From Promethearchaeota archaeon (GTDB lineage Archaea > Asgardarchaeota > Lokiarchaeia > Sigyniarchaeales > SOKP01), in NCBI GenBank assembly GCA_016930515.1, contig JAFGGO010000107.1, positions 1 through 24,992 on the forward strand: 24,992 bases of DNA, in the 5' to 3' direction. Shown in pieces: positions 2,873 through 5,795 of the stretch. Position 1 is the first letter of the stretch; every line of letters begins with the position of its first letter. The notes under the pieces were generated by a model, which worked only from the letters and a program-made list of their open reading frames with translations, was not told the DNA's origin and did not search any database. Both the position numbers and the translations under genes were made by a program.

Positions 2873-3823
2873 TTAATTATTTTTAATTTTTGAATAAGAA
2901 ATAGTTTTCAATTTTTCTGGGATTTGTGCAATAAAGCGAAATTCCAAGGATAATACGCGAATTAAATTCTCGTATTCGTTCAGCGTGAGATTTTCAAAAA
3001 GGACGACATTGTCTCCCTTTTTTTCAGGATTCACGTGAAAGTTTACATAGTAATAATTTCCTGATTCCTCTATATCGAAAGCTCTTAGTTCTCTTTGATC
3101 CAATAGAATTATATCGCCTTTTTCTTCAAGAGCGTATTTGGGTATGTCAGAATAATCTAAAAGTCGATTGAAAATGTGGTTGAGAATTATTCTTTTATTT
3201 GTTATAACATATCTAACTTCGTGCTCTTTTATCGCAATATCGTTCACTTGGCTTTCGTGCTTCAATCGTGCCTTGTATTTCTTGTCCTTGCTCACTACTT
3301 TAAACCAATTTTCTGTTAATTTAATACTTGAGTTTTTAATCCATAGAATTTTTTCGTCTTGATCGAGTATTTGCTTGATTTCACTGAGCTTCGATGTTTC
3401 TGTAATGTCTAATTTCGTGTTTTTAATTTCGTCTATTTTCATCTCTTCTTTTTCAATATTCCGAATATATTTTTTGTCTTCTAGCTTGTCTTCTTCCTTG
3501 ATTTCCATTGATTCGAGACCGAACACGTTCAAGAACTCTTCTAGTTCTTCCCCTTGATCTACTGCCACTACTTTACAACGTTTCAAGCCAGCTTTCATGA
3601 CGTCTCCTTGAAGCACCGTAGCAACTCTCGATCCTAGAAATCTTTTTCTAACGGACGAACGAGCGCCTTTCCATAGATATATCCTTTTGATCTCTTGAAA
3701 CAAGATAAGGAAAACTTTGTCAGGCGTTAAATAATCTCCTAAAGAAGGCCTATCGAGCTTTAGATCGGTTTTATTCCCCTCTTCGTCGAGTTCGAATACC
3801 ATGAAATCGTTCCATTCTTCCAT
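2873..3823 (-). CDS. Gelsolin-like domain protein with charged linker and C-terminal PH-like domain
   Basis: aa 1-103 show the gelsolin repeat signature (LTPDKVFLI, IYLWKGARSS..KR, VDQGEELEEFLNVFG). From aa ~153 there are LDQDEKILW and YVITNKRII motifs typical of bacterial-type PH domains. Confidence 0.7.
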   Translation of the reverse strand: MEEWNDFMVFELDEEGNKTDLKLDRPSLGDYLTPDKVFLILFQEIKRIYLWKGARSSVRKRFLGSRVATVLQGDVMKAGLKRCKVVAVDQGEELEEFLNVFGLESMEIKEEDKLEDKKYIRNIEKEEMKIDEIKNTKLDITETSKLSEIKQILDQDEKILWIKNSSIKLTENWFKVVSKDKKYKARLKHESQVNDIAIKEHEVRYVITNKRIILNHIFNRLLDYSDIPKYALEEKGDIILLDQRELRAFDIEESGNYYYVNFHVNPEKKGDNVVLFENLTLNEYENLIRVLSLEFRFIAQIPEKLKTISYSKIKNN

Positions 3824-3981
3824 GATTCAACACTATATCTTGGAAATATTTTGTAAGTTGAGGTAAAAAGGTTCTTTACAACAAGATAAATTCCATCAAT
3901 AAAAATTTTTTTAATATTTTATGAAACCTACTATTATAATATTTTACGAGAACAAGTATCTAAGTTAAATAATTTAATGAA

Positions 3982-4003
3982 TAAAAAAAAAATGAAAAAA
4001 AAA
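3982..4003 (-). terminator. Oligo-T terminator downstream of the PadR-HAAS operon
   Basis: Long A-runs on + (T-runs on -) immediately after the stop codon at 4005. Confidence 0.5.
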
Positions 4004-4004
4004 T

Positions 4005-5033
4005 TTATATAGATTTATAATTCTCTAGCTTTATCATCCAATAGACTTCCTCAATCGTGCTAAGTAAGACCAACATCATGATTAAAACAACAATTCCCCG
4101 GGCAATTTCATAGAATTCAGGGCTTATTGTAATGATGGGAGGCATTTGATTTGGATCAATCCATGGAATCATTGCTGGATTTAAGATTACAAATATAAAC
4201 ATCATTGCACCACCTATTTTCGAACACATGATAGCACCTAAGATGATTTGGTGCGTTTGAGGCTTGGTGTTTCCGATAATTCCTCGGGTTAAGTTTAACG
4301 CTCCTTCAAGTATTGAAAAAATTCCCCAAACACGTAGGATCGTTAGTAAATTCAAGTCAAAATAATCTTCAATCCCAACAACGGGTTGTATGACGAGTAC
4401 AAATCCAATAATCATTCCGAAAATACCTTCTGCTATCTTACCTCCAGGTTTGACGAAAGGTTTTAATTGCTTTCCCGTTTTAGGTGAAACCGGTAAACCA
4501 AGATCTATGGCTTTTTGCAATTCCCTTCCACTTTTCTTTATATCTACTTTTGATTTAAAATCTTCAGGAAAATATCCTTCCATTGACAAAGCAACGAAAA
4601 TAATTGTAATTACTGCAAATGCCATTGCCAATCCTCCAAAAATATTAAAAGTTATATTTTCCCAGTTGCCAAAGATAGCGTTAACAATAAAAGAAATTAT
4701 GTTTATCGCAATTATTATGGATAAAACTATCGTCAACGCTTTTTTATACAGTGGAAATAATTCTTCTGATATGAAATATTTTGGAGTTCCTCTCCTCTTA
4801 TATTCCTTCGCAATATTATTTGGAGTGCCCATTTGTTCGATTGCCAGCCTTATAGACTGTTCTGTTGGCTCACCCGTCTCTGAGAGTTCCGTCGCCTTAT
4901 CCCAAATATGCTCCTCGAGTTGATCTAAAACATCCCGTAGTTCGTCCTTCTTATCTTTAATCCACTCTGGAAGTTTCTCTTTAACTTCCTTTATAAAATC
5001 CTTTACAAGATTTTGTATGATTTTTTCGCTCAT
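4005..5033 (-). CDS. HAAS (permease-prefix) domain multi-pass membrane protein
   Basis: N-terminal helical domain with LEEHIWDK...AIEQMGTPNNIAKEY, followed by about 6 hydrophobic segments. ATGA overlap with the upstream PadR gene. Confidence 0.75.
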   Translation of the reverse strand: MSEKIIQNLVKDFIKEVKEKLPEWIKDKKDELRDVLDQLEEHIWDKATELSETGEPTEQSIRLAIEQMGTPNNIAKEYKRRGTPKYFISEELFPLYKKALTIVLSIIIAINIISFIVNAIFGNWENITFNIFGGLAMAFAVITIIFVALSMEGYFPEDFKSKVDIKKSGRELQKAIDLGLPVSPKTGKQLKPFVKPGGKIAEGIFGMIIGFVLVIQPVVGIEDYFDLNLLTILRVWGIFSILEGALNLTRGIIGNTKPQTHQIILGAIMCSKIGGAMMFIFVILNPAMIPWIDPNQMPPIITISPEFYEIARGIVVLIMMLVLLSTIEEVYWMIKLENYKSI

Positions 5034-5581
5034 TTTATCAAACCTCTTTCTGTTAATTCTTTTTCAATATTATGACCACAAATATCACAAAATCGCAGTC
5101 CATTTTCAAGATATTCCTCTACATTTATTTTGTTTGCACAATCGGGGCAAAAATAAAATCGCTGTTCTAGCGTAATGTTCACGCCAAAAAGTGGCGAAAT
5201 TGCCTCGGATAGCTTTGAATAAAACCCTTCCATTCTGTTATAGGCCTTGAGACCAGATTCCGTCATGTAATAATTCTTTCTTAGCCTTCCATCTACTTCT
5301 ACACGTTGTGCTTCAATGAATCCTTCCTTTTCAACTTTCCTTAATAGTGGATATAAAGTTCCTTCCTCAATTATAAGGATGTCTTCTGTTTTTTCGCTTA
5401 AATCCCTAATTATCTGATACCCATGAATGCCCGCTCTTCCCGAATTTTTAATTACCGAAAGAACGCATAGCGTGCTTATTCCCCTGTTTATTTCAGATTC
5501 AAACTTTTCAATGAAATCTCTAAATTTTATATCTGTACCGATTAAGGATTTAGGATCTGGTTCCTTTATTCGTTTTATCAA
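5030..5581 (-). CDS. PadR-family transcriptional regulator with C-terminal zinc ribbon
   Basis: HGYQII, EEGTLYPLLRKVEKEGFI, GRLRKNYYMTESG; C-terminal CPDC...CDICG. Start placed at TTG 5581 because GAGGTGA lies 7 nt upstream; the ORF track extends to ATG 5608. Confidence 0.85.
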   Translation of the reverse strand: MIKRIKEPDPKSLIGTDIKFRDFIEKFESEINRGISTLCVLSVIKNSGRAGIHGYQIIRDLSEKTEDILIIEEGTLYPLLRKVEKEGFIEAQRVEVDGRLRKNYYMTESGLKAYNRMEGFYSKLSEAISPLFGVNITLEQRFYFCPDCANKINVEEYLENGLRFCDICGHNIEKELTERGLIK

Positions 5582-5795
5582 TAATTTATCACCTCTTATG
5601 ATACTCATTTTATTACTATATTATGTGTTATCCAATACTATATCCATAATTATACCATGCGGTCCTATGTATTAAAAGTTATGGGAGACCAATTTTTACA
5701 AAAATCTTGGACATAAGACCATATACAATTAGCCCAATAACACAATAAAAAACTTTTTTAACCCATATTAATGTCCTACTTGTCGTGCGAAAAAA

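Follow-up and report, generated by a model that had tools for sequence, protein, structure and literature searches.

The stretch of DNA analyzed here, hereafter the window, comprises 24,992 nucleotides of contig JAFGGO010000107.1 from a Promethearchaeota archaeon. It carries a gene, gelsolin-PH, whose product joins an N-terminal gelsolin domain to a C-terminal domain with a predicted PH-like fold (Table 1). Positions are those of the whole window, and amino acid (aa) numbers are those of the 316-aa open reading frame (ORF) at 2873..3823. The original prediction had placed the ORF at these boundaries without giving a strand; the boundaries hold, and the strand is minus. The motifs LDQDEKILW (aa 153-161), SKDKKYKARLK (aa 178-188), and YVITNKRII (aa 205-213) were also found exactly where they had been placed, and IYLWKG of the gelsolin part mapped to aa 48-53. 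A homologue search with the protein returned 80 proteins of ~310 aa with identical architecture, nearly all of them 309-337 aa long, at identities from 83% down to 39%. The ATG start matched the N-termini of 39 homologues in the alignment. Based on these 80 homologues of the same architecture, the gene is regarded as real. The AT-rich upstream spacer, together with a downstream spacer of ~100 base pairs (bp), suggests that the gene probably has its own promoter, presumably inside the 181-bp upstream region. The fusion is conserved and lineage-restricted, and it falls within the published class of gelsolin-plus-X proteins.

Table 1. Coordinates of gelsolin-PH, its parts, its neighbors, and its stand-alone relatives
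Feature	Position	Strand	Description
Gelsolin-PH gene	2873..3823	minus	316 aa plus stop codon; ATG start; ORF list and translation (P0001)
Gelsolin domain	3515..3823	minus	aa 1-103
Conserved post-gelsolin extension and charged linker	3374..3514	minus	aa 104-~120, then to aa 150
PH-like domain	2876..3373	minus	aa 151-316; seven predicted strands, C-terminal helix 281-294, two extra strands
Helical basic-aromatic insert	3227..3319	minus	aa 169-199, core W173-K188; between strands 1 and 2
Upstream intergenic region	3824..4004	minus	181 bp, AT-rich; next upstream ORF ends at 4005; read from the sequence
Methyltransferase-like protein	1333-2772	minus	479 aa; directly downstream of gelsolin-PH, same strand
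PadR regulator and HAAS/permease-prefix membrane protein	4005-5608	minus	between the gelsolin-PH gene and LarE
Stand-alone PH-like relatives	L101:231-827, L103:249-884, L105:179-775
Stand-alone PH-like relatives	L100:452-943, L102:267-755	minus

Sequence and structure searches agreed with the gelsolin signature originally read from aa 1-103. Pfam family PF00626 (Gelsolin) matched aa 32-98 with 23.8 bits against a gathering cut-off of 21 (E 4.1e-5), and several homologues likewise exceeded this cut-off. In a phmmer search of the PDB, the best match was Thorarchaeota ProGel (7c2f, E 1.1e-6), followed by the Thor, Loki, and Heimdall 2DGels and then by eukaryotic adseverin and CapG. When the full-length AlphaFold2 model was compared with the PDB by Foldseek, gelsolins alone filled the top 50, and the N-terminal domain was found to have the gelsolin/cofilin fold. 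A HMMER alignment to 2DGel3 paired 'sDDvyll' there with 'pDKvfli' here, placing K36 at the second Asp; E93 of QGEE was retained. This second Asp of the 2DGel3 'DDvY' strand is presumably a type-II calcium ligand, as in gelsolin G1. Since Lys replaces it, the gelsolin-PH protein would be expected to act independently of calcium, as reported for ProGel and 1DGelX.

The gelsolin domain is followed by a conserved extension (consensus ESMEV..KLEDK.Y.RN, aa 104-~120) and by the charged linker that had been proposed at aa ~104-150. From aa 104 to 150, 26 of 47 residues are charged (55%; 11 K+R, 15 D+E). The model is partly of low confidence here, with a predicted local distance difference test (pLDDT) value below 50 at aa 115-121 and 136-143 and a helix at 122-134. 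L103, E104, S105, M106, and D116 were almost invariant in the alignment of 40 sequences, and judging by this near-invariance the first part of the linker is not simply a spacer. The gelsolin domain and the extension together (aa 1-~129) were 40-55% identical in proteins with other C-terminal domains. Because this segment recurs with different C-terminal parts, aa 1-~120 is taken to be a common head module carrying various tails.

For the C-terminal part, AlphaFold2 was run with an alignment of 40 homologues; a single-sequence run was unusable (mean pLDDT 39.7). The resulting model had a mean pLDDT of 81 overall and 83-92 over aa 151-300. Strands were predicted at 159-168, 200-208, 211-215, 232-242, 246-254, 257-264, and 274-279, together with a helical insert (173-195), a helix (281-294), and two short extra strands. 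In the model, these elements form a seven-stranded antiparallel sandwich with a C-terminal helix cap, which is the PH-like superfold. Structure searches were performed with the full-length model, and the rows for aa 145-316 were picked out from the results. In the all-against-representatives search, 20 of 20 rows aligning to aa ~145-316 were PH-superfold chains. These comprised SSRP1, Pob3, Spt16, Rtt106, and the PH-GRAM domains of MTMR2 and MTMR6, as well as Vps36 GLUE, Lam6, the bacterial PH domain 3hsa, TFIIH p62, pICln, a RhoGEF PH domain, and the neurobeachin PH domain. Matches in the ESM Atlas were to bPH_3 and bPH_2 clusters (TM-score 0.52-0.53). A second gelsolin or cofilin repeat at aa 145-316 was rejected, since no gelsolin or ADF-H chain aligned there. 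A PH-like fold of aa 151-316 is thus supported by the model and its structural neighbors. The PH-like domain of the original prediction therefore stood on the AlphaFold2 model, all structure neighbors, and the Atlas matches, but it found no sequence link to PH families. NCBIfam likewise gave no family match pointing to PH.

The basic stretch first noticed as SKDKKYKARLK belongs to the loop that connects strands 1 and 2 of the model and is strongly conserved. Over the 43 sequences counted, W173 occurred in 41, K175 in 38, K181 in 37, R186 in 41, and K188 in 36. Position 179 was basic in all 43, positions 182 and 184 each in 41, and position 183 was aromatic in 43/43 (Y here). The insert therefore ranks among the best-conserved parts of the PH-like domain. 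Such a conserved basic patch would not be required if the domain were an oligomerization module like the ring-forming bacterial PHb, making the gelsolin multivalent and able to bundle or cross-link filaments. We consider this explanation very unlikely.

Relatives of the PH-like domain were few. When aa 140-316 were searched against 1.84 billion representative proteins, eight matches emerged. The three longest were ~310-aa proteins with the match at the C-terminal end, as in gelsolin-PH, and the remaining five were shorter sequences of 55-170 aa. The domain occurred in no other fusion among these 1.84 billion proteins. The domain profile gave weaker matches in ten further genomes among 400 Asgard genomes, mostly in small ORFs, five of which were examined (Table 1). 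Two are soluble, 162-163 aa long, and have the layout 'DEKILW ... basic stretch ... Y.ITNK'. The other three (198-211 aa) have two transmembrane-like segments exactly between the 'DEKILW' and 'Y.IT.KR' strands, at the position of the basic insert in gelsolin-PH. By hhalign, the gelsolin-PH domain matched one stand-alone transmembrane form at 96.4% (E 1.4e-9) and one stand-alone soluble form at 95.3% (E 2e-8). These stand-alone relatives matched no Pfam family and constitute a small family inside the GTDB family of the gelsolin-PH genome. Prokaryotic PH domains are usually anchored by two transmembrane helices (PMC2817789). This habit and the transmembrane hairpin of the paralogues suggest that the insert face of the gelsolin-PH domain may look toward the membrane.

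The fusion itself recurs in a single lineage. Strong full-length matches were obtained in 17 of the 400 Asgard genomes, every one in one GTDB family, where the carriers besides the source genome are 16 of 134 genomes in 6 of 85 genera. Outside that family, the PH-like domain profile gave no match in 266 genomes of the other 32 sampled families. Across Asgard genomes, the architecture is therefore recurrent (17/400) but not Asgard-wide. Some carriers bear Thor-, Hermod-, or Hodarchaeota titles in NCBI. The 'Thor' metagenome-assembled genome (MAG) QM1B.325 and the 'Hod' MAG DZ1B.199 belong to one GTDB genus inside the gelsolin-PH family; phylum-level NCBI titles of these records are thus unreliable for distribution claims. 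This patchy, narrow distribution limits the general importance of gelsolin-PH. Where the gene is present, the two modules have been conserved jointly across the 40 sequences aligned (39-83% identity). This joint conservation and the lack of the domain in any other fusion support the two modules forming one functional unit.

Based on these observations, our tentative but quite plausible reading is that the gelsolin head handles actin while the PH-like module places the protein on a membrane through its basic-aromatic insert. The first module (aa 1-~120) would bind actin monomers or filament ends, which we infer from its homology to ProGel and the 2DGel proteins. The second module (aa 151-316) would be the localizing part. 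Its W173...K188 insert between strands 1 and 2 would put the protein on the inner membrane face, at anionic lipid head groups, and actin capping, severing, or sequestering would thereby occur at the membrane. Membrane binding is suggested here by the paralogues and the conserved insert.

Several observations weigh against this membrane-placement reading. At the sequence level, none of the 43 sequences of the gelsolin-PH family matched a Pfam PH-clan family (PH, GRAM, bPH_1-6, and others) significantly, the best being a single sequence against bPH_3 (E 0.045); the domain profile found chance matches alone among PDB sequences (E > 0.2), and an Atlas feature search of the domain gave no usable match. 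The gelsolin-PH protein itself has no transmembrane segment. In eukaryotic PH domains, the phosphoinositide motif K-Xn-(K/R)-X-R runs from the end of strand 1 to the start of strand 2. This canonical lipid motif does not appear to be conserved here, as a basic residue occupies position 168 in just 18 of the 43 sequences and R204 is lost in one subgroup; the conserved basic residues sit instead within the helical insertion (aa 173-188) that this loop carries. The neighboring genes, which encode a PadR regulator, a HAAS/permease-prefix protein, LarE, an AIR-synthase-like protein, and an NPPY methyltransferase-like protein, provide no cytoskeletal or membrane context. Because no more than 17 of the 135 genomes in its GTDB family have it, gelsolin-PH is regarded as dispensable. 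The conserved basic patch might just as well attach to acidic actin. Moreover, protein ligands are no rarer than lipid ligands for PH folds. The PH-like domain might accordingly be a protein-partner module that recognizes a small GTPase or a peptide motif and recruits the head to a signaling or trafficking complex, a role we regard as improbable.

A possible affinity of the basic patch for an acidic actin surface also bears on another explanation, in which the PH-like domain would supply a further actin-binding site and dock along the side of the filament. With the protein held there, its one gelsolin domain could compete for the contacts between actin subunits and sever the filament. Akil et al. 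hypothesize an actin side-binding element in the X domain of Thor 1DGelX, which they predict to be a coiled coil. Their 1DGelX binds rabbit actin with a dissociation constant of 7.7 uM; its nucleating, sequestering, and severing activities are not under calcium control. ProGel, with its single domain, shows weak actin binding and bundles filaments but does not sever them (PMC7444086). However, the characterized 1DGelX probably has a different X, and none of the PH-like structure neighbors found here is an actin binder. The transmembrane hairpin at the insert position of the paralogues also suggests a membrane rather than actin. Side docking is judged unlikely, as is severing achieved through it.

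Returning to the placement of the head at a membrane, a stronger version would make gelsolin-PH the first identified archaeal protein to couple actin regulation directly to a membrane. The W/K/Y/R insert would then bind anionic archaeal lipids, possibly inositol-phosphate head groups, having replaced an ancestral two-helix membrane anchor, and the head would act on Lokiactin, by capping or severing, either in protrusions or at the cell cortex. Taken jointly, including the lipid-binding insert, these steps are doubtful. If true, lipid-targeted gelsolin control arose independently in an Asgard lineage. Asgard archaea form actin-supported protrusions, and to our knowledge the actin-binding proteins identified in them to date comprise profilins, together with gelsolins that bear unexplained extensions. 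Crawling motility of Asgard archaea has also been reported (10.1101/2025.11.30.690169). Because its most conserved surface is a basic-aromatic patch located where paralogues hold a membrane anchor, gelsolin-PH represents a concrete, easily expressed, and testable candidate for a link between Asgard actin and the membrane or a partner protein.

In the source genome (~4.0 Mb, 94% complete), there is a gene for a 381-aa actin (L090:1474-2619; PF00022, E 1e-131), and there are seven other loci with gelsolin-domain matches, on contigs C161, C136, C85, C158, C166, C159, and C140 (L081-L089). These other gelsolins include a 329-aa 2DGel ending in a zinc-ribbon-like tail, a helical-tail form of 403 aa, and a 271-aa gelsolin with a small beta-rich X that is 75-90% identical across the best 120 of 413 proteins. 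Around gelsolin-PH, an operon with cytoskeletal genes was ruled out by the unrelated neighbors. The 479-aa protein encoded downstream has a SAM-binding motif (VDLYAGEGN), the NPPY motif of amino-methyltransferases, and a weak Pfam N6_Mtase match, and its orthologues are 58-62% identical; from these motifs, it may be an orphan amino-methyltransferase. Of the 12 loci whose downstream side could be seen, 9 have its gene directly after gelsolin-PH. Since all compared loci belong to one family, this adjacency may reflect inherited gene order, and no functional link between the two proteins was apparent from the locus comparison. On the other side, LarE directly adjoins the gelsolin gene in several related loci, and the PadR and HAAS/permease-prefix pair looks like a local insertion. 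Paralogous copies of a 342-aa protein occur in tandem in locus L001.

Asgard gelsolins act as actin regulators in vitro (PMC7444086, PMC9433394), and '1DGelX', meaning one gelsolin domain plus an unknown domain X, has already been published (PMC7444086). Several '1DGelXs' are counted per Loki genome (PMC9433394), which makes this a loose class. Gelsolin-PH has the single gelsolin domain followed by a non-gelsolin X that defines it. The original prediction did not recognize the architecture; gelsolin plus X proved to be known as 1DGelX, and the PH-like identity of X appears new. No paper linking an Asgard gelsolin with a PH domain, or calling X PH-like, was found in the literature searched, and both the PH-like nature of the tail and its membrane-anchored relatives appear to be undescribed. 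Gelsolin-PH resembles 1DGelX in its N-terminal gelsolin domain, non-gelsolin C-terminal part, Asgard-only distribution, and ProGel-like head. It differs in the nature of X, which has been described as a predicted coiled coil (I-TASSER) or as disordered in 1DGelX and is a confidently modeled 165-aa PH-like sandwich here. Thor 1DGelX is listed as KXH72031.1, with L. ossiferum B35_GelX as another member (10.1101/2025.11.30.690169), and the green fluorescent protein fusion GFP-1DGelX was seen near the endoplasmic reticulum and nuclear membrane in human cells (PMC7444086). Judged by description and distribution, Thor 1DGelX probably belongs to a different family. The PH-like domain is confined to one GTDB family, no SMTZ1-83 protein occurs among the 80 gelsolin-PH homologues, and a well-folded sandwich is at odds with how X has been described in print. 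The sequence clusters of ten homologues did not include KXH72031.1, and no SMTZ1-83 entry stood among the best 120 matches to either of two other gelsolin-X families.

Other gelsolin-X forms share the head of gelsolin-PH with its ESMEV...Y.RN extension, with 43% identity to the paralogue in the source genome, but their C-terminal domains are unrelated to the PH-like domain. The 403-aa form (P0105; L085 in the source genome) has a helical C-terminal domain, and the forms of ~270-400 aa (P0226, P0106) have a disordered linker and a small beta-rich domain. Within the latter, P0106 (L016:6001-7191, ~390 aa) combines a long disordered linker with a small beta-rich domain and ends in a motif assigned by its Atlas cluster to Rho_N/SAP/HeH, a nucleic-acid-binding type on an actin-regulator head. 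These families are far larger and more widespread than gelsolin-PH, with 2004 and 413 matches versus 80. The '1DGelX' label thus spans several unrelated C-terminal domains, and results obtained with the Thor protein are therefore not transferable to all of its members. Compared with ProGel (7c2f), which is a gelsolin domain alone (94 aa), gelsolin-PH has an added domain.

Prokaryotic PH domains (bPH_2/YdbS-like PF03703, bPH_3 PF14470, and PHb1 3hsa; PMC2817789) gave no significant sequence match to gelsolin-PH. Its domain differs from them in being soluble, in having a basic helical insert in place of the transmembrane hairpin, and in its fusion to gelsolin. Among eukaryotes, we know of no gelsolin-PH protein, and nothing indicates that the archaeal and eukaryotic fusions are homologous. 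Eukaryotic actin regulators nevertheless include several with a PH superfold, namely WASP (WH1), Ena/VASP (EVH1), spectrin (PH), and myosin X (PH). In gelsolin regulated by phosphatidylinositol 4,5-bisphosphate (PIP2), the actin module is controlled via a lipid-binding element. Gelsolin-PH resembles these systems in that an actin module would be targeted or regulated through a PH fold or a polybasic lipid-binding element.
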